Source: a virus (lineage: Duplodnaviria > Caudoviricetes). Taken from it: a DNA stretch of 64,000 bases. Location: the IMG/VR virus record IMGVR_UViG_3300037067_002734, positions 29,886-93,885 of that record; one strand, 5' to 3'. Below, piece after piece: positions 7,000 to 51,679 of the stretch (the stretch's first letter is position 1; the number at the start of each line of letters is the position of its first letter). Position numbers and translations under genes: made by a program. The notes under the pieces were generated by a model that saw only the letters and a list, made by a program, of their open reading frames with translations, did no database searches and was not told the origin of the DNA.

Positions 7000-7354
7000 A
7001 AAAATATGTGAGTGTGGACAAAAATGTCATGTTCGTGTAAAAATTTGCCCAAAATGTAATAAAGAATTTGAGAAAAAAATTAAAAAAGAAAAGGTAGAAA
7101 AAATAGATGAATCTATAACTGTAGGTAATTGGGCTAAAGATAAAACTAAAGGGCTTCCAGAAATTGTTATTCCTGAACCATTAATCGGAACATCGTTAAG
7201 TAATGAAGAAATTAAAAGTTATATTTCTTACGAGGGACTTGGCTACTGTCTCCTAACATATATTGATGCTAAAAAAATTAGTGATAATAAATTGAAAGAA
7301 TTATGGATTGATGCAAAGAGTAAACTTAAAGAAATTATACAATACTTATATTAA
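6992..7354 (+). CDS. hypothetical protein with N-terminal zinc ribbon
   Basis: CECG...CPKC. Confidence 0.7.
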   Translation: MPEKICECGQKCHVRVKICPKCNKEFEKKIKKEKVEKIDESITVGNWAKDKTKGLPEIVIPEPLIGTSLSNEEIKSYISYEGLGYCLLTYIDAKKISDNKLKELWIDAKSKLKEIIQYLY

Positions 7355-8344: not shown

Positions 8345-8773
8345 ATGAATAATTTTCAATTAGATTTGTTTAATAAAGTCAAAGAAATAAGAGGCGAATA
8401 TAGACATACAGAAAACTCAAAAGAAATATATGGTATTCTTTCTGTTTTACTACATAATTTAGCTGGTCTTATTGTTGATATTGATGATGAAGGTTCTTCA
8501 ATAGAAGATTTATATCCGTTATTATTACAGATTGCTGCCGAATGTCAATATGGATGCGAACAAATAAAATTAACTGAACCACAATTAGAACAAGAACAAC
8601 AAGATACATTATATAAAAAGAAATATGAACAAGCCCATAAAATGTTGGAAACGATATATTCAACTATCCATAATTCATCTCCATATTATCATATTATCCA
8701 AAAAGGACAATCTCCGACTAGATATTATGAAATAAGTAATGATTTATTACATATGATGAAAGATGCAATATGA
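8345..8773 (+). CDS. hypothetical protein
   Basis: ORF coupled (ATGA) to dnaE-N. Confidence 0.7.
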   Translation: MNNFQLDLFNKVKEIRGEYRHTENSKEIYGILSVLLHNLAGLIVDIDDEGSSIEDLYPLLLQIAAECQYGCEQIKLTEPQLEQEQQDTLYKKKYEQAHKMLETIYSTIHNSSPYYHIIQKGQSPTRYYEISNDLLHMMKDAI

Positions 8774-10698
8774 CATATATTGCCCTTCACTGCCATTCTG
8801 CATTCAGTATTTTAGATGGCCTTTCAAAATGTAAGGATATAGCAAAAAGATGTGTTGAACTGAACTTATCAGCTTGTGCTTTAACTGACCACGGAAATAT
8901 TTGTGGTGCTATTAAGTTTTCAGAAGAATTAAAAAAGAAGGGTATAAAACCTATTTTGGGTTGTGAATTATATATTTGCGAACACCACTCCTCAATTCAA
9001 TCTGATGCCAATTCTGATTTACAACATTTAGTAGTATTAGCAAAAAATCTTACTGGATATAAAGATTTATTGAAAATTATTTCTAAATCCAATTCAAAAG
9101 ATTCTTTCTATAAAAAACCACGACTTTCATTACAAGAATTGAAAGAATTAAATAGTGGTAATCTAATAGGAATTAGTGGGCATTTAGGTTCACATATGTC
9201 CACCTGCATGTTCGATAATATTAAAGATGTGGCTAATTTAAAGGATTTATCAGAAATTAGATTACATCTAAAAAAACCAATTGACCAAATATTAACTGAA
9301 CAAGCCAACATATTAATTGATATTTTTGGAAAAGATAACTTCTTTTTAGAAATTCAATTAATCGATCAAGATAATCTTCCTATTAATAAGGTTATAGCTG
9401 CTGGGCTCCGCTATATTGGTAAAAAATTAAATATTCCTAGAGTAGCAACTCCCGATGCCCACTACTGTAAAAAAGAAGATGCTATAGACCAAAGATTATT
9501 ATTATGTAATAATTTTCGTACCACAATCACAGAAGTATATTCTAAAATAAAGTCTGGAGAAAAAACTCCCCTAACCTCCTTTTTTAATTCTTCAAATTAT
9601 CATATTCCATCTTTTGAAGAGATAAGTTTAGTTAATACAAAAGATGAAATTGAAAATACTTTAAAGATTGGGGAGATGTGCGAAGAATACGATATTACTT
9701 TACCCCCAAGTATTCCATTATTCAAGAAAACTAATGGACTTAGTGCTATAGAATATTTAAGACAGGAAATAAAAAGGGGATTTGAAAATAAAAAATCTAA
9801 AATAGAAGAAGTATGCAAAAGAAAAAATCTTACTATTGATGATTATCGCAAAAGATATAAATATGAAGAATCTATTATTATTAATGCTGAAAATAATCTA
9901 GAACATTATTTTTTAATTGTGCAAGATATTGTTAAATTTGCTAAAAATAGTGGACAAATGGTAGGTTGTGGCAGAGGTAGTGCTGGGGGATGTTTATTAT
10001 CTTATTTATTAGATATAACAGATGTTGATCCCCTCGAATACAATTTATTATTTGAAAGATTTTATAATAGTAGTAGAAAAAAATCTTTACCAGATATTGA
10101 TGTTGATTTTGAAGCTGGCAAACGCAACTTAATTATTGATTATATTAAACAAACATATGGAGAAGATTATGTAATTAGAATTGCAACATTTGGACAAATG
10201 AAGTGTAAAGTAGCTCTTAAAGATGTCCTTCGTAATAACAATATTGATTTTAATATAGCTAACGAAATAACCAAGCATCTTGTAGATGAAGCTAAAATAT
10301 CAGATCAATTACAAGAAATACATGATGAAGGAGATGATGATTACACCGCATTAGATTGGAATGTTGATTATAATGATAAAATTAAACCTTATTGTTATAG
10401 AAATGATGATGGAACATTAGGAGGTGATTATGCTCAACATTTTGAACAAGCAATACGACTAAATGAATGTATTAGAAATGTTGGTGTTCATTCGTGTGGT
10501 GTTGCAATATCAAATATTCCAATCAAAGAAGTATGTCCAATGATTAGAGCTAAAGATGGGAATTTAGTTGCTGGATATGGCAAAGATATAGAACAAGTGT
10601 CTCTTGTAAAAATGGATATTTTATCATTAAATACCTTAGATAAATTACATATTGTCACAGATTTAATTAATGAAAGAGAAAAAAATGAAACTATATAA
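8770..10698 (+). CDS. dnaE: DNA polymerase III alpha, N-terminal subunit (PHP + palm/thumb)
   Basis: LHCHSAFSILDG, ALTDHG, KPILGCE, TPDAHY, GRGSAGG, FERF, PDIDVDF, HSCGV and KMDILSL; ends right after the third catalytic Asp motif. Confidence 0.95.
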   Translation: MTYIALHCHSAFSILDGLSKCKDIAKRCVELNLSACALTDHGNICGAIKFSEELKKKGIKPILGCELYICEHHSSIQSDANSDLQHLVVLAKNLTGYKDLLKIISKSNSKDSFYKKPRLSLQELKELNSGNLIGISGHLGSHMSTCMFDNIKDVANLKDLSEIRLHLKKPIDQILTEQANILIDIFGKDNFFLEIQLIDQDNLPINKVIAAGLRYIGKKLNIPRVATPDAHYCKKEDAIDQRLLLCNNFRTTITEVYSKIKSGEKTPLTSFFNSSNYHIPSFEEISLVNTKDEIENTLKIGEMCEEYDITLPPSIPLFKKTNGLSAIEYLRQEIKRGFENKKSKIEEVCKRKNLTIDDYRKRYKYEESIIINAENNLEHYFLIVQDIVKFAKNSGQMVGCGRGSAGGCLLSYLLDITDVDPLEYNLLFERFYNSSRKKSLPDIDVDFEAGKRNLIIDYIKQTYGEDYVIRIATFGQMKCKVALKDVLRNNNIDFNIANEITKHLVDEAKISDQLQEIHDEGDDDYTALDWNVDYNDKIKPYCYRNDDGTLGGDYAQHFEQAIRLNECIRNVGVHSCGVAISNIPIKEVCPMIRAKDGNLVAGYGKDIEQVSLVKMDILSLNTLDKLHIVTDLINEREKNETI

Positions 10699-10870
10699 AA
10701 GTATTATACAGAATATAATATCAAATAATTTTGATGAGATTTATTTACCAGATACAACAAAAGAAGGTGATAAAATCATTATTAAAAAACCTGATTCATC
10801 ACAAGTATTTAATGTTAGGGCTATATTAGCAGATGAAAGTGTGATTGTGGGAGAAGATAATGAACAATAA
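10685..10870 (+). CDS. small hypothetical protein
   Basis: ORF overlapping both neighbours. Confidence 0.6.
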   Translation: MKLYKSIIQNIISNNFDEIYLPDTTKEGDKIIIKKPDSSQVFNVRAILADESVIVGEDNEQ

Positions 10871-11513
10871 TTATTTATGTGTATATGATTTTGAGACATC
10901 TTCTCCTAAACCATTATCTACCCAAATCTTACAAATTGGTGCTGCAATAATACACCCCAAATCATTTGATATAGTAGCTGAATTTAATGCAGTAGCTAAA
11001 TATGAAAATTGGGATCAAGTTGAATCTAAAGCATTAGAAGTTAATCATTTAACTAAGGAACAATTAGATAAAGCCCCTGATATTAAAATAGTATTCGCAG
11101 ATTTTGTTAGTTTTGTGCAAAAATATAATATTGGAAATAATAGTTGGGGATATCCTATTCCATGTGGTCAAAATATAGGAAACTTTGATAGTATAATATT
11201 AGATAGATATTGTCAAAGGTTTAAGGTATGGAATAATAAAGAAGAGCGAAATAAGTTATTTCATCCATTTTTATCAATAGATACTGCATGTTTATTCTTT
11301 GGATGGTTCGAAAATGAAAAAGAACCTAGAACATTAGGACAAGTTGCGGTAGCAAAACATTTAGGTATAACAGAAGAACAATTAAACAAAGCCCACAATG
11401 CCATTGAAGATGTAAGAATAAATGCCCAAATATTAATTAGATTTCTCAAATTCCAGCGTAATATAATGAATAGTTATAGGGATAAAATTAAAGGATGTTT
11501 TAATGATTCATAA
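10860..11513 (+). CDS. DEDDh 3'-5' exonuclease (DnaQ/epsilon-like)
   Basis: ExoI VYDFETS, ExoII GQNIGNFD, IDT, ExoIII AHNAIEDV. Confidence 0.9.
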   Translation: MNNNYLCVYDFETSSPKPLSTQILQIGAAIIHPKSFDIVAEFNAVAKYENWDQVESKALEVNHLTKEQLDKAPDIKIVFADFVSFVQKYNIGNNSWGYPIPCGQNIGNFDSIILDRYCQRFKVWNNKEERNKLFHPFLSIDTACLFFGWFENEKEPRTLGQVAVAKHLGITEEQLNKAHNAIEDVRINAQILIRFLKFQRNIMNSYRDKIKGCFNDS

Positions 11514-13994: not shown

Positions 13995-14243
13995 ATGAAT
14001 AAATATCAATTAGCATCAATTTTACTATCATATGAAATAGATGAACCCCATTTTGGAGAAAAATGGAATTATAGTCCATTTTTACCATCTCAAATACAAG
14101 ATTGGGAAAAAGAAGAGCATTGTGGAGATTGTACTCACGAACCTCAACCGTGTACTAAATGTTTGATTGATGAATTATTATATAAAGCAGAATGGTTAAT
14201 AAATCATTTAGAACAAATGGGATATAAAATAAATAATGTTTAA
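13995..14243 (+). CDS. small Cys-containing hypothetical protein
   Basis: HCGDCTHEPQPCTKC. Confidence 0.65.
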   Translation: MNKYQLASILLSYEIDEPHFGEKWNYSPFLPSQIQDWEKEEHCGDCTHEPQPCTKCLIDELLYKAEWLINHLEQMGYKINNV

Positions 14244-15807
14244 TATAGATAATATTCCTTTAAATGATATTGAAGTATATAAGAATATTTATCACAAAGG
14301 AAATTGTTTTGGTATTTTTCAATGTGATTCTAGTATTGGCATTAGAACATGCAAAAGATTTCAACCGTCAAATATTTTAGAAATTTCTCTTGTAATATCT
14401 ATAGTAAGACCAGGAGTATTGCGTTTTTATGTTGGTGATAAATCTATGACAGATATTATAATAGAGCGTAAACATGGAATAGAAAAAATAGAGTATTTAC
14501 ATCCAGCACTTGAGCCAATATTAAAATCTACATATGGAGTAATAGTTTATCAAGAACAAGCAATACAAATAGCACAACAAATAGCAGGTTTTACACCACT
14601 AGAAGCTGATAATCTAAGGCGAGCAATAGGAAAAAAATTATCACATTTAATGTCACAAATTGAAAATCAATTTATTGAAGGATGTATAAAAACAAATGTA
14701 GTAAATTTAGAAATAGCTAAACAATTATTTGATAATATTAAAGCTAGTCAAAGATATTCTTTCAACTTGAGTCACGGAGTATCTTATAGTATTAATTCAT
14801 ATAAAACAGCATATTGCAAACATTATTATCCATTAGATTTTTTTACTGGATGTTTAAAAACTGCAAATACACATCAAAAACCATTAGAATATGTAAAGCA
14901 GTGTGTATTAGATAGTCGCAATAACAATATAGATATTGTAGTACCAGATATTAGAGATAAACAAATAGACCCTTATATTAAAAATAATAAATATGTAAGT
15001 TTTGGACTATCAAATATCAAGGGTATTGGAGAGGCGGCAATTAGAGGATTATTTTTAACCCTAGAAACAATAGAAAAATCATTAGATCAATTTAAATGGG
15101 TTGACTTTTTATTCTTATTATCTGGAAAGATTAGTTCTGACGTTCTTGAAGGATTAATTTATAGCGGAGCCCTAGATTATTTTAAGAAAACTCGCTCTGC
15201 TATGTTTTTTGAATTAGAAAAATGGCATATGCTAACTAAAGGAGAAAAAGCGTGGATAATAAAGCATCACTCTACCTCTCCTTTTAATTCATTATTAGAT
15301 GCCGTTGCTTGTGTGGCGGCTACAAAAAAGAACGGTGGTGGATGTCATACACAGAAAAAAGCTGATTTTTGCCTTGGTTTAGCGGAAAGTATTAAAAATC
15401 CTACAATTAATATAAATGATAGTCCATATTTTATTAGTATGATGGAGGAAAAATACTTAGGATGCGGTATTTCATGTGTAAAACACGATGGAACATCTCT
15501 TAATGAATTAGCTAATTATACTTGTGAACAAATTAATAAGGGTTGTGGATCAACCAATATTAGTTTAGCAATAGAAATTGTTAGATTTAAAGAACATAAA
15601 ATTAAAAAGGGAAATAGTTCTGGTAAATATATGGCGTTTTTAGATGTTTTTGATAAAAGTGGACTACTTTCAGAATCTGTGGTTGTATTTGCTGAAAAAT
15701 GGGAAGAAATAAGAGATCAATTTGATGAAAAAGGAGCATATTTTATAGTATGTAATAGATCAAAGAAAAATTCATTAATTGTTGAAAATATTCAAAAAAT
15801 TTGTTAA
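14236..15807 (+). CDS. dnaE: DNA polymerase III alpha, C-terminal subunit (fingers, HhH, OB)
   Basis: IPLND..GIFQCDS, SIVRPG, LKSTYGVIVYQEQ, ADNLRRAIGKK, YSFNLSHGVSY, FGLSNIKGIG, GKYMAFLDVFD OB fold. Confidence 0.95.
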   Translation: MFNIDNIPLNDIEVYKNIYHKGNCFGIFQCDSSIGIRTCKRFQPSNILEISLVISIVRPGVLRFYVGDKSMTDIIIERKHGIEKIEYLHPALEPILKSTYGVIVYQEQAIQIAQQIAGFTPLEADNLRRAIGKKLSHLMSQIENQFIEGCIKTNVVNLEIAKQLFDNIKASQRYSFNLSHGVSYSINSYKTAYCKHYYPLDFFTGCLKTANTHQKPLEYVKQCVLDSRNNNIDIVVPDIRDKQIDPYIKNNKYVSFGLSNIKGIGEAAIRGLFLTLETIEKSLDQFKWVDFLFLLSGKISSDVLEGLIYSGALDYFKKTRSAMFFELEKWHMLTKGEKAWIIKHHSTSPFNSLLDAVACVAATKKNGGGCHTQKKADFCLGLAESIKNPTININDSPYFISMMEEKYLGCGISCVKHDGTSLNELANYTCEQINKGCGSTNISLAIEIVRFKEHKIKKGNSSGKYMAFLDVFDKSGLLSESVVVFAEKWEEIRDQFDEKGAYFIVCNRSKKNSLIVENIQKIC

Positions 15808-23946: not shown

Positions 23947-23982
23947 TTGATAATTCTCTAAAAAATCGTATAATATATTAGG
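23947..23982 (+). promoter_or_regulatory. promoter, copy 1 of motif ATCGTATAATATATTAGGA
   Basis: TATAAT at 23969-23974, possible -35 TTGATA at 23947-23952; 19-nt identity with 49416-49434. Confidence 0.7.
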
Positions 23983-24078
23983 AAAAGATATTATGAATCA
24001 TATATTACAACCAAATATTACCCGAACGGTTAGATTCTATTCATAGTGTCTTTTCCCAACCGTCTCGGGTATTTTTTT
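23981..24078 (+). ncRNA. putative structured leader/small RNA, copy 1 (interleaved helices + U-tract)
   Basis: 23981-23998 pairs with 24039-24056 (18 bp, 2 G-U); 24019-24031 pairs with 24058-24071 (13 bp, 1 bulge); T7 at 24072-24078; same architecture at 49432-49513. Confidence 0.7.
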
Positions 24079-24089
24079 ATGGATATTAT

Positions 24090-25154
24090 ATGATATGTAA
24101 ACGATGTAAAGAATATATTAACGCTGGAAAAACTCAAATTTGTCTAAATTGTGGGTGCAAAACTAATAATAAAGTAAAAACTTTAGAAGAAGAATTCCCA
24201 GATATAACTAAAGAATGGGATTATTCAAAAAATGAATTATCTCCATCTTTAATAAGTAGTAGAAGTGGTAAGAAGGTTAGTTGGATTGGGAAATGTGGAC
24301 ATCGATGGGAAACCTCTATATCTAATAGGACAACAAAAAATAGCAATTGTCCAATATGTGCTAATCGTACAACTATGCCTGGATATAACGACATTAGAAC
24401 TACACATCCGAATCTTTTAATAGAGTGGGATTATAGTAAAAATATTATAAAACCAACCGAAGTAAGTTTTGGTAGTGATAAAATAAAAATTTGGTGGAAA
24501 TGCTGTAAATGTTCAAATTCATGGTTAGCCACTTCTAACCAAAGAACAAACTTAAAAAGTAATTGTCCATACTGTTCAAATCAAGCAATTATTTATGGAT
24601 ATAATGATTTATTAACAACTCATCCAGATATTGCTAAAGAACTAGCTGATATTGATTTAGCTAAGAGAATTAGTCATGGATATGATAAAAAAGTTTTATT
24701 TAAATGTAAAAAATGCAACTATCAATGGAAAACATTCATTTATTCTAGACTTAGAGGAACAGGGTGTCCAAAATGTAATTTTTCAACATTAGAAATTAAA
24801 ACAAAGAAAATATTAGATAATTTGGGTATTAGTAATGAAACTCAAAAAAGATTTAATATTTGTAAAGATAAACGAGAATTACCATTTGATTTTTATATAC
24901 CACAATATAATGTTTGTATAGAATGTCATGGTATTCAACATTATCCATATAGATATAAAAAATCTTCTTTTTCTAAAACCTCTAGAGGTAAAAAACTTAA
25001 TTTATCTATTATAAAACATCATGATAAAATAAAATATCATTTCTGTAAAAATAATGATATTAAACTAATTAGAATTCCATATTGGAAATATAATAATATA
25101 CAAGACATTTTAATAAAGAAATTAAATCTATATGAAAATACTCTGTCGTCATGA
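24090..25154 (+). CDS. zinc-ribbon-repeat (DUF4379-like, 3 repeats) PD-(D/E)XK endonuclease, homing-endonuclease-like
   Basis: Repeats of THP..EWDYSKN..P..GS..K.WW.C..W....R....CP.C; C-terminal LPFDFYIPQYNVCIECHGIQHY..D.IK..FC..I.LIRIPYW. Confidence 0.8.
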   Translation: MICKRCKEYINAGKTQICLNCGCKTNNKVKTLEEEFPDITKEWDYSKNELSPSLISSRSGKKVSWIGKCGHRWETSISNRTTKNSNCPICANRTTMPGYNDIRTTHPNLLIEWDYSKNIIKPTEVSFGSDKIKIWWKCCKCSNSWLATSNQRTNLKSNCPYCSNQAIIYGYNDLLTTHPDIAKELADIDLAKRISHGYDKKVLFKCKKCNYQWKTFIYSRLRGTGCPKCNFSTLEIKTKKILDNLGISNETQKRFNICKDKRELPFDFYIPQYNVCIECHGIQHYPYRYKKSSFSKTSRGKKLNLSIIKHHDKIKYHFCKNNDIKLIRIPYWKYNNIQDILIKKLNLYENTLSS

Positions 25155-49389: not shown

Positions 49390-49410
49390 ATTTTTAGAGT
49401 TTTTTTGGGA

Positions 49411-49433
49411 AAAATATCGTATAATATATTAGG
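49411..49433 (+). promoter_or_regulatory. promoter, copy 2 of motif ATCGTATAATATATTAGGA
   Basis: TATAAT at 49420-49425; identical core to 23965-23983; no good -35. Confidence 0.68.
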
Positions 49434-49513
49434 ATAAAGTCGCATATAAACAAATATAAATAGCCTCGCGGTTAAAGTCTTGCGACTTTTATCCCAACCG
49501 TTGAGGCTTTTTT
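49432..49513 (+). ncRNA. putative structured leader/small RNA, copy 2
   Basis: 49432-49444 pairs with 49481-49494 (13 bp, 1 bulge); 49462-49473 pairs with 49496-49508 (12 bp, 1 G-U, 1 bulge); T-run to 49513; AGGAG SD at 49518-49522. Confidence 0.7.
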
Positions 49514-49527
49514 ATTTAGGAGTTTTA

Positions 49528-50478: not shown

Positions 50479-51679
50479 TGATTTACAAACTACTCATCCA
50501 GAACTAATACAAGAATGGGATTTTGAGAAGAATACTATTAAACCTACAGAGATAATATTTGGAAGTGGAAAAAGGGTGTGGTTTTTATGTTTAAACCATA
50601 AACATAGTTATTCAACAAGATTATTTGATAAAATTAATAAAAAAATACAATGTCCGATATGTACTGGACACAGAGTATTAATTGGATTTAATGATTTACA
50701 AACTACTCATCCAGAGTTATTAAATGAATGGGATTTTAAGAAAAACACTATAAAACCAACAGAAGTTTCTTATGGTAGTCATAAAAAGATTTGGTGGAAA
50801 TGTAAATTAAATCATTCCTGGATAATGAGTCCTAATAATAGAACATCAATGCCCAATCAAGGTTGCCCATATTGTTCTGGGCGTAGAATACTGATTGGAT
50901 TTAATGATTTAGCCACTACACATCAAGAGTTGTGTGAAGAATGGGATTATGAAAAAAATAAAATCAAACCAACAGAAGTTACACATGGTAGCAATAAAAA
51001 AGTATGGTGGTTATGTAAAACGCACAAGCATAGTTTTATATCATCTATTGGTAATAGAAAAAGTGGTAGAAAATGTCCAATATGTTGTGCTTATGGAAGT
51101 GCTAAAATTATTTTATCGGGATTTAATGATTTACAAACAACGCATCCAATATTATGTGAAGAACTTATTGACGAAATATACAATTCTACACAATTATCAT
51201 CTGGTAGTGATAAAAAAGTAAAATGGAAATGTAAAAAATGTAATTATATATGGAAAGCATCTATTTCATCTAGAGCAGGAAAAGGAAAAAATGGATGCCC
51301 TAAATGTAATTCAAGTAAGGGTGAAATTAATATCTGTCAAATTCTAGATAAATACAACATTAATTATAATAAAGAAAAGACTTTTGATGGATGTGTAGAT
51401 AAAAGAAAATTAAAATTTGATTTCTACCTTTTGGAATATAATCTATGTATTGAATATCAAGGGCTTCAACATTATCCAGAAAAATATAAAAAATCTAAAT
51501 TTTATTCATATTCAACTATACATAATGAAGAATCTTTAAAAAATCTACAAAAACGAGACCAAATCAAGCGTGATTTCTGTCTTAAAGAAAATATTAAACT
51601 AATAGAAATCCCATATTGGGATAAAAACAGAATAGAAGAAATATTAATTAAAGAACTTGATATTCCTTTAATTTCCTAA
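50453..51679 (+). CDS. zinc-ribbon-repeat (4 repeats) PD-(D/E)XK endonuclease
   Basis: Four NDL.TTH..L..E repeats; SKGE..LKFDFYL..CIEYQGLQHY..RDQIKRDFC..IPYW. Confidence 0.82.
   Translation: MAKLQPGINDLQTTHPELIQEWDFEKNTIKPTEIIFGSGKRVWFLCLNHKHSYSTRLFDKINKKIQCPICTGHRVLIGFNDLQTTHPELLNEWDFKKNTIKPTEVSYGSHKKIWWKCKLNHSWIMSPNNRTSMPNQGCPYCSGRRILIGFNDLATTHQELCEEWDYEKNKIKPTEVTHGSNKKVWWLCKTHKHSFISSIGNRKSGRKCPICCAYGSAKIILSGFNDLQTTHPILCEELIDEIYNSTQLSSGSDKKVKWKCKKCNYIWKASISSRAGKGKNGCPKCNSSKGEINICQILDKYNINYNKEKTFDGCVDKRKLKFDFYLLEYNLCIEYQGLQHYPEKYKKSKFYSYSTIHNEESLKNLQKRDQIKRDFCLKENIKLIEIPYWDKNRIEEILIKELDIPLIS
50470..51310 (+). repeat. intragenic tandem repeats of about 200-220 nt (four zinc-ribbon units)
   Basis: TAATGATTTACAAACTACTCATCCAGA near 50476 and 50689; variants near 50902 and 51124. 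Confidence 0.8.

Follow-up and report, generated by a model that had tools for sequence, protein, structure and literature searches.

What kind of element is the structured leader that heads a tandem pair of nuclease genes in this phage, and does it belong to the nuclease genes or merely to the place where they lie? The DNA analysed, referred to here as the window, is the stretch of 64,000 nucleotides that forms bases 29886-93885 of a 93,885-bp IMG/VR phage record; positions are those of the window unless the genome, meaning that whole record, or another contig is named. On re-reading, the sequence of 49411-49527 agreed to the base with what an earlier note on this DNA had described: two interleaved helices, A with A' and B with B', are followed by a U-run and an AGGAG Shine-Dalgarno (SD) sequence, and the leader heads a gene for a nuclease of 316 aa that is followed by a 408-aa paralogue (Table 1). 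Helix A:A' has 13 bp, with one bulged C in A' and one G-U pair, and B:B' has 12 bp with a single bulged U in B'; after B' come UUUUUUAUUU, AGGAG and the start codon.

Copies of the leader and the genes they precede

The earlier note had taken this leader for a second, diverged copy of one motif, and that reading stands. The order of elements and the 7-nt and 1-nt junctions are as in copy 1, ahead of nuclease 1, and a CGGTT/AACCG core and the bulge in B' are common to the two, while the distal part of A and the outer part of B are wholly unlike. The combination CGGTT-N-CAACCG occurs twice in the window, against 0.03 occurrences expected. Altogether the design was found in nine copies (c1 to c9, the first three being copies 1 to 3), three of them in the 94-kb phage record and six in other metagenomic phage contigs, and they come from no fewer than five phage sources and stand before nucleases of three unrelated families (DUF4379, CapR/MTES_1575-like and HNH_3). 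Copies c4 to c8 were located upstream of the closest nuclease homologues in other assemblies.

Table 1. Positions of leader elements, nuclease genes and the empty site (window coordinates unless a genome or contig is named).
Feature	Position	Strand	Details
Copy 2 promoter	49410..49431	+	conserved motif AAAAATATCGTATAATATATTA; -10 TATAAT at 49420-49425; predicted +1 = G49432
Copy 2 helix A, 5' strand	49432..49444	+	GGATAAAGTCGCA; pairs with 49481-49494; at predicted transcript 5' end
Copy 2 linker L1	49445..49461	+	UAUAAACAAAUAUAAAU; A-rich, 17 nt; 3' part can pair with U-tract
Copy 2 helix B, 5' strand	49462..49473	+	AGCCTCGCGGTT; pairs with 49496-49508
Copy 2 linker between B and A'	49474..49480	+	AAAGTCT, 7 nt; conserved (consensus A-R-A-K-U-C-U)
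Copy 2 helix P-C	49474-49479 paired with 49484-49489	+	
Copy 2 A' (helix A, 3' strand)	49481..49494	+	TGCGACTTTTATCC; 5' half alternatively usable for P-C
Copy 2 B' (helix B, 3' strand)	49496..49508	+	AACCGTTGAGGCT; one bulged U; single C separates it from A'
Copy 2 U-rich tract	49509..49518	+	7 U within first 8 nt past B'
Copy 2 SD and start codon	49518..49530	+	AGGAG 49518-49522; ATG 49528
Nuclease 2, 316 aa	49528..50478	+	N-terminal Myb/HTH-like region, one DUF4379 zinc ribbon, restriction-endonuclease-like C-terminus
Nuclease 3, 408 aa	50453..51679	+	four DUF4379 stretches; 26-nt overlap with nuclease 2; without own leader
Copy 1 cassette head	23947..24079	+	TTGATA 23947-23952, 16 nt, TATAAT 23969-23974
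Copy 1 helices	A 23981-23998; B 24020-24031; linker 24032-24038; A' 24039-24056; B' 24058-24070	+	then U-tract; leader span 23981-24078
Nuclease 1, 354 aa	24090..25154	+	three DUF4379 stretches
Copy 3	genome 1523-1612		ahead of zinc-finger nuclease with CapR-like repeats and MTES_1575-like nuclease domain; rIIA/rIIB after that gene
c4	L153 825-910		
c5	L154 227-316		
c6	L173 777-875		
c7	L174 356-458		
c8	L255 1508-1600		identical in two further runs
c9	IMG/VR record G005 7076-7173	-	ahead of 175-aa HNH_3 endonuclease
Empty site / 64-aa ORF	10685..10879	+	44% identity, E 4e-13 to 70-aa ORF of L153

All nine copies head nuclease genes and none heads a gene of another kind. A covariance model picks exactly the three copies in the phage record, and it found the leader nowhere else in that genome, nor in 650 kb of related loci; the divergent c4 escapes the models (R1 and R2) and was picked out by eye on the strength of its architecture and context. 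At 17 IMG/VR and 80 metagenome loci with more distant homologues no leader was found upstream of the nuclease-relative genes, nor was one present at the close homologues P0005, P0006, P0020, P0222 and P0242 or at the tandem nuclease 3. Four IMG/VR relatives with 38-46% DnaE identity carry neither nuclease homologues nor leader, and searches of GenBank phages by megablast and tblastn gave no match. The identical leader occurs in two metagenomes that carry DNA of this phage (groundwater and landfill); in their contigs we found no variant and no empty site, the joints listed being those of other organisms' paralogues. Among pattern searches of IMG/VR, CGGTTA..CCCAACCGT gave at least 118 matches, all of them chance, and CGTATAATATATTAGGA gave 13, none with a leader. 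The pattern ATATCGTATAATA-N-GGA gave 104, of which only contig L314 led to a real relative. A second match in the record that carries c9 is a plain hairpin and not a leader copy.

Nucleases 2 and 3 combine DUF4379 zinc ribbons with a restriction-endonuclease-like C-terminus and match PHROG 'homing endonuclease' families; PADLOC returned only weak PD-(D/E)XK and homing-endonuclease matches for the nucleases, and a PDB sequence search gave no match to the nuclease domain. There are further relatives in the record. A fifth DUF4379 paralogue (358 aa, genome 26575-27651, upstream of the window) has no promoter-leader head and starts 31 nt after the record's single tRNA gene, tRNA-Met (CAU), at genome 26470-26543. 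A 135-aa ORF (2440-2847) matches the C-terminal nuclease domain of nuclease 2 over 2563-2802 (tblastn E 6e-9), lacks the zinc-ribbon part and, on this similarity, would be a stand-alone or remnant nuclease domain. At their 3' ends the cassettes of nucleases 1 and 3 run straight into the neighbouring genes, with no spacer: nuclease 1 shares its last 23 nt (25132-25154) with the start of the downstream glycosyltransferase gene, and the last 32 nt of nuclease 3 (51648-51679) lie antisense over the end of a convergent PhoH-like gene.

Covariation of the helices and mobility of the cassette

In DNA of 28% G+C interleaved helices arise by chance, so that complementarity alone is no proof of a structure and support has to come from comparison between copies. 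When sites were sought by structure alone (interleaved helices with a T-run after them), shuffled genomes gave about the same number as the real genome, and such a descriptor was unable to separate the copies from chance in A+T-rich DNA. The comparison itself bears out the claim of the earlier note that copies 1 and 2 differ in a compensatory manner, since pairing of both helices is kept through two-sided changes. In an alignment of six copies, 8 of the 11 pairs of helix B show two-sided changes and 98.5% of cells are paired; the covariation score is 0.678 against 0.224 in shuffles, with none of 500 shuffles reaching the real value, and it falls to 0.125 or less when the partner strand is slid. 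Helix A was traced in eight copies. Its first three pairs, GGA/UCC, are its only invariant ones, and positions 4-6 show three pair types each, all Watson-Crick. Further out, up to 12 more base pairs differ entirely in sequence from copy to copy and also covary. The proximal 7 bp are 98% paired in register and 39-70% paired when slid (eight copies); in the covariation table of helix A, which was built from the traced pairs, the 100% pairing is partly so by construction. The G-U pairs, seven in A and three in B, fit an RNA of the + strand.

A third helix, which we call P-C, arises when the 5' half of A' pairs with the conserved linker (A-R-A-K-U-C-U) that follows B; 4 of its 6 pairs show two-sided changes. 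It is present in the constrained terminator-form fold, described below, of seven of the eight copies; in c8 it forms without the use of A'. Across copies helix A measures 11-19 bp and helix B 8-14 bp, the A'-to-B' junction is 1-3 nt long and, where it is a single nucleotide, reads C, A or U, and few unpaired nucleotides of the leader are conserved. To judge from the sequence comparisons, the leader is a real and conserved feature. The variable part of A had been thought capable of giving each nuclease its own cognate RNA, an idea that finds no backing here: A covaries only with A', and matches of leader 11-mers elsewhere in the phage genome stayed within the range of shuffles and pointed to no guide or target role.

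That the leader travels with the nuclease gene, as the earlier note had suspected, can be seen by comparing a relative that has the nuclease at a given site with one that lacks it. Contig L153, the source of c4, carries the N-terminal DnaE gene (DnaE-N) to position 792, then promoter and leader (805-910), the nuclease gene (926-1942), a 70-aa ORF (1939-2151) and an RNase T-like gene. In the window DnaE-N (8770-10698, 56% identity to its counterpart in L153) is directly overlapped by a 64-aa ORF, the homologue of the 70-aa ORF, which is followed by the RNase T-like gene (51% identity). Neither leader nor nuclease is present at this junction. The insert in L153, of about 1.15 kb, thus consists of promoter, leader and nuclease, and the nuclease is present in one phage and absent from the other between the same conserved neighbours, as is characteristic of free-standing cassettes. 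The window's genes overlap exactly at the point where L153 has this insert, so the leader is part of what moves, and we regard the leader as the putatively cis-acting head of a mobile homing-endonuclease cassette, cleavage and homing being themselves putative. For copy 2 itself IMG/VR provided no empty site, as it holds no relative of the 372-aa upstream neighbour.

Two side observations concern this region. The 64-aa ORF begins within the end of DnaE-N and runs into the start of the RNase T-like gene; an ORF of this kind is easily missed by length filters. The phage DnaE is itself split into two genes (8770-10698 and 14236-15807) about 3.5 kb apart, and in relatives homing-endonuclease genes lie exactly at the boundaries of DnaE pieces: after DnaE-N in L153 (1-1942), before the DnaE finger domain in the contig of P0222, and before the PHP/N-terminal DnaE part in L258 (2501-5336). 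The split may owe its origin or its persistence to endonuclease insertions.

Two predicted folds and what the leader may do

A TATAAT-type promoter precedes all nine copies, with 3-7 nt between its -10 hexamer and the G that opens helix A, and this spacing to the GGA implies that helix A begins at the predicted 5' end of the RNA. A good -35 element is found only in copies 1 and 3, and the promoter motif may therefore be read by a phage-specific factor. In an extended form (an A-rich stretch followed by CGTATAATAT, at most one mismatch, intergenic) the motif has only four sites in 94 kb, at genome 1509, 18273, 53851 (window 23966) and 79302 (window 49417), three of which head nuclease cassettes. 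The question raised in the earlier note, whether the arrangement is a generic promoter-terminator, thus has a divided answer: the promoter part also stands without a leader before non-nuclease genes, at genome 18273 and in L314, but the structured part is confined to nuclease genes. The promoter lies upstream of the whole structure, and the SD and ATG, 5-26 nt beyond B', are unpaired in all predicted folds. In three copies A' is complementary to the SD region of its own nuclease gene over 6-8 nt (c5, L154 280-326; c8, L255 1567-1610; c6, L173 836-888), and in c5 the heptamer GGAGCCA stands both at the 5' end of the RNA and at the SD; such long complementarity was not seen in either copy of the window.

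The B:B' stem is mostly G-C and is directly followed by a U-rich tract, with 6-7 U within the first 8 nt after B' in all eight copies measured (c1-c8), as in an intrinsic terminator. B and B' lie 22-35 nt apart, where the hairpin loops of intrinsic terminators have about 3-8 nt, and a simple terminator scan does not call them; with P-C stacked on B:B', the apical loop comes down to 4-12 nt and a 6-nt internal loop remains. The A-rich stretch upstream of B pairs with the U-tract in predicted folds. Folds were predicted with ViennaRNA for eight copies and cover the forms without a pseudoknot. In the nascent RNA up to A', helix A:A' is predicted in all eight. The two full-length forms differ little in energy, by no more than about 8 kcal/mol: the terminator form comes out at -20 to -25 kcal/mol and the A form at -16 to -22. 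Of the eight copies, c1 and c6 have the A form as their minimum-energy fold, and the remaining six, c7 among them, have the terminator form. In the terminator form P-C stacks on B:B' to give one long hairpin with a 6-nt internal loop and a U-rich tail. A:A' and P-C both draw on the 5' half of A', and changes in either helix are compensated; between B and the far end of helix A there are just 7-16 nt. The stereochemistry of pseudoknots limits the coexistence of two full helices with such short junctions. From the shared half of A', the 1-3-nt gap between A' and B' and the closeness of B to the end of helix A, we infer that full A:A' and full B:B' do not form together and would be mutually exclusive, at least in c1 and c7.

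In proposing a function we need to explain the observed architecture, the covariation of A and B, the conservation of P-C, the position of the leader and its co-mobility with the nuclease gene; where transcription starts, that it terminates and which fold dominates are points that we infer. Our proposal, to which we would give about an even chance, is that the leader is a two-state attenuator that limits expression of the nuclease. Transcription would start from the TATAAT-type promoter at the GGA that opens helix A, as the spacing suggests, and the resulting leader of roughly 85-100 nt would have two conserved folds. The 5'-terminal A:A' helix (11-19 bp), which emerges from transcription before B:B' and into which the nascent RNA is predicted to fold, would enclose B in its loop; in the other fold the G+C-rich B:B' (8-14 bp), the internal loop and P-C, followed by the U-rich tract, would form an intrinsic terminator. 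The leader would thereby set the fraction of transcripts that stop ahead of the SD and ATG, at a distance of 18-26 nt, metering a potentially harmful nuclease while part of transcription reaches the nuclease and the phage genes downstream. A strong terminator would be polar on the co-directional blocks that follow, the glycan island after nuclease 1 and rIIA/rIIB after the nuclease at genome 1622, so termination should be partial or overridden by the phage. In the leader copies we found no ligand pocket, conserved leader peptide or protein site; short ORFs occur in the leaders of c1, c3, c4 and c7 and not in c2 or c5. As no sensor that would flip the switch was found, the attenuator may be fixed rather than regulated. 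A bolder version, which we consider decidedly improbable, has the leader as a portable RNA device that senses the state of the transcript's own 5' end by pairing this terminus with the terminator loop, or as the source of a released 90-nt pseudoknotted RNA acting in trans on the nuclease or its mRNA; if it were true, a selfish cassette would bring its own RNA safety catch, working in any phage genome that it invades.

Several other readings share part of this evidence. One of them does away with the switch: the terminator hairpin forms, a 5' GGA-stretch of 5-7 nt docks on its internal loop (..UCC), both ends of the RNA are buried, and the product stabilises the mRNA 5' end or is an abundant small RNA. 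Such a compact form is topologically possible and could even be the real final fold. The invariance of GGA/UCC alone among the pairs of helix A fits it well, as do the start of helix A at the predicted +1, the exact coincidence of the proximal A' nucleotides with the 6-nt internal loop of the terminator-form fold, and a layout, promoter and then terminator about 90 nt later, that is that of a small-RNA gene. We nevertheless think it unlikely, because covariation extends for up to 12 bp into the distal part of helix A, which such a form would not need; as for an RNA acting in trans, 11-mer matching disclosed no target in the genome. It is a good deal harder to credit that A:A' is incidental and that we are looking at an ordinary promoter followed by an ordinary terminator. 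Interleaved helices of such size are common by chance in an A+T-rich genome and the promoter is generic, but the complementarity has been kept in nine copies of differing sequence, in a fixed register from +1 to 1-3 nt before B', and we disfavour a reading that the comparison of copies leaves with scarcely any probability.

RNase III processes phage mRNAs at irregular hairpins, as in T7, the lambda N leader and SP82, and the long helices could be processing sites for a double-strand-specific enzyme of this kind, whose cuts would free the nuclease mRNA of upstream transcripts or make it more or less stable. With A of 11-19 bp, B of 8-14 bp and a 1-nt junction between A' and B', coaxial stacking of A' and B' is conceivable; yet no site-specific feature of sequence or length is conserved, helix lengths vary widely, and the conserved U-tract and A-tract flanks would go unexplained, so that we give processing little chance. 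Translational control, for which our expectation is just as low, would have A' (..CUCC) act as an anti-SD, masking the ribosome-binding site except when A' is paired with the SD-like 5' end (GGAG..). Judged by eye, the complementarity between A' and the SD region amounts to 7 nt in c5 (GGAGCCA twice), 8 nt in c8 (GGAGAGAG) and 6 nt in c6, and hairpins that mask the ribosome-binding site do govern endonuclease genes of the T4 family (PMC2988022); against this, only 3-4 nt are complementary in c1, c2, c3 and c7, both window copies included, and no predicted fold places the SD within either helix. There is finally the idea that the leader RNA is a partner of the nuclease, either a cognate inhibitor or cofactor made in excess by way of the terminator, in the style of type III toxin-antitoxin systems, or a guide. 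The order of promoter, structured RNA, terminator and nuclease recalls ToxIN-type loci, and the RNA moves with the gene. The leader, however, has no tandem repeats and is common to three unrelated nuclease families; the proteins are of DNA-nuclease type without a ToxN-like match, and the RNA is absent at close homologues, at the tandem nuclease 3 and at the fifth paralogue, which makes a partnership highly improbable.

Relation to known systems and meaning for phage biology

The nearest precedents for the proposed attenuator come from the T4 family, where the homing endonuclease genes I-TevI/II/III, segB and mobE are restrained by hairpins and terminators and where, in Aeromonas phage 25, a very stable hairpin lies immediately upstream of the ribosome-binding site of seg43(25) without masking it (PMC2988022). 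As in the leader, these hairpins or intrinsic terminators stand at or before free-standing phage endonuclease genes and limit their expression, and seg43(25), with its hairpin upstream of an unmasked site, has the same arrangement. The T4 cases are nevertheless each idiosyncratic, consisting either of a single hairpin that contains a late promoter and masks the ribosome-binding site or of a terminator within the ORF, whereas the leader is one conserved and portable module: its promoter stands upstream of the structure, two interleaved helices covary and a third helix competes, three nuclease families have it in common, and it moves as part of the insert. A translational mask of the T4 type was rejected, as neither the SD nor the start codon lies in a hairpin and the promoter is not inside the structure.

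With terminator/antiterminator attenuators and the expression platforms of riboswitches the leader shares mutually exclusive conserved helices in a 5' leader, one of them a hairpin with a U-tract. It differs from classical attenuators in that the antiterminator pairs, from the extreme 5' end, with the loop and internal loop of the terminator and not with the 5' strand of the terminator, so that exclusion would be largely topological, and in having no conserved leader peptide, ligand-binding core or protein site and no Rfam match. A leader peptide was rejected because none is conserved among the copies, and a riboswitch or an IscB omega RNA because no Rfam family matches. Type III toxin-antitoxin loci of the ToxIN kind consist of a promoter, a structured pseudoknotted RNA, a terminator and the gene for a harmful nuclease; the order of elements is the same, but the leader has no tandem RNA repeats, its cassettes carry homing-type DNA endonucleases and not ToxN-like RNases, and many homologous nucleases have no such RNA. 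In the absence of a repeat array and of an RNase of the ToxN/AbiE type, a type III antitoxin was set aside. In HDV-like ribozymes the strands follow the order P1, P2, P3, P1', P2' and the 5'-terminal nucleotide already belongs to the first helix, much as the leader follows the order A, B, hairpin, A', B' and is predicted to begin with helix A; the leader, however, has no P4 or J4-2 with the conserved catalytic C, and its helix A has 11-19 bp in place of 7 bp. The 1-nt junction, the missing catalytic C and the lack of a match to any Rfam ribozyme model led us to reject this identity as well.

At gathering thresholds Rfam 15, including its riboswitch, HDV-like, twister, pistol, hatchet and HEARO/omega RNA models, had no match in the 64-kb window, and in E-value mode the best match, to TD-1, scored 23.5 bits against a gathering score of 64.5, with nothing credible. 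Full-text literature searches returned no description of such a leader. Within Rfam and the literature searched, then, the leader has no counterpart among described RNA families.

Among the selfish genes of large phages homing endonucleases are the most common, and to our knowledge their restraint is known only from a few idiosyncratic cases in the T4 family. The leader would add a new family to RNA catalogues, and it marks endonuclease insertions in metagenomic phage genomes. Its logic, in which the 5' end of a transcript would pair with the loop of a terminator, is unusual. The presence of one module across three unrelated nuclease families suggests a general and transferable control of expression that is built into the mobile gene.
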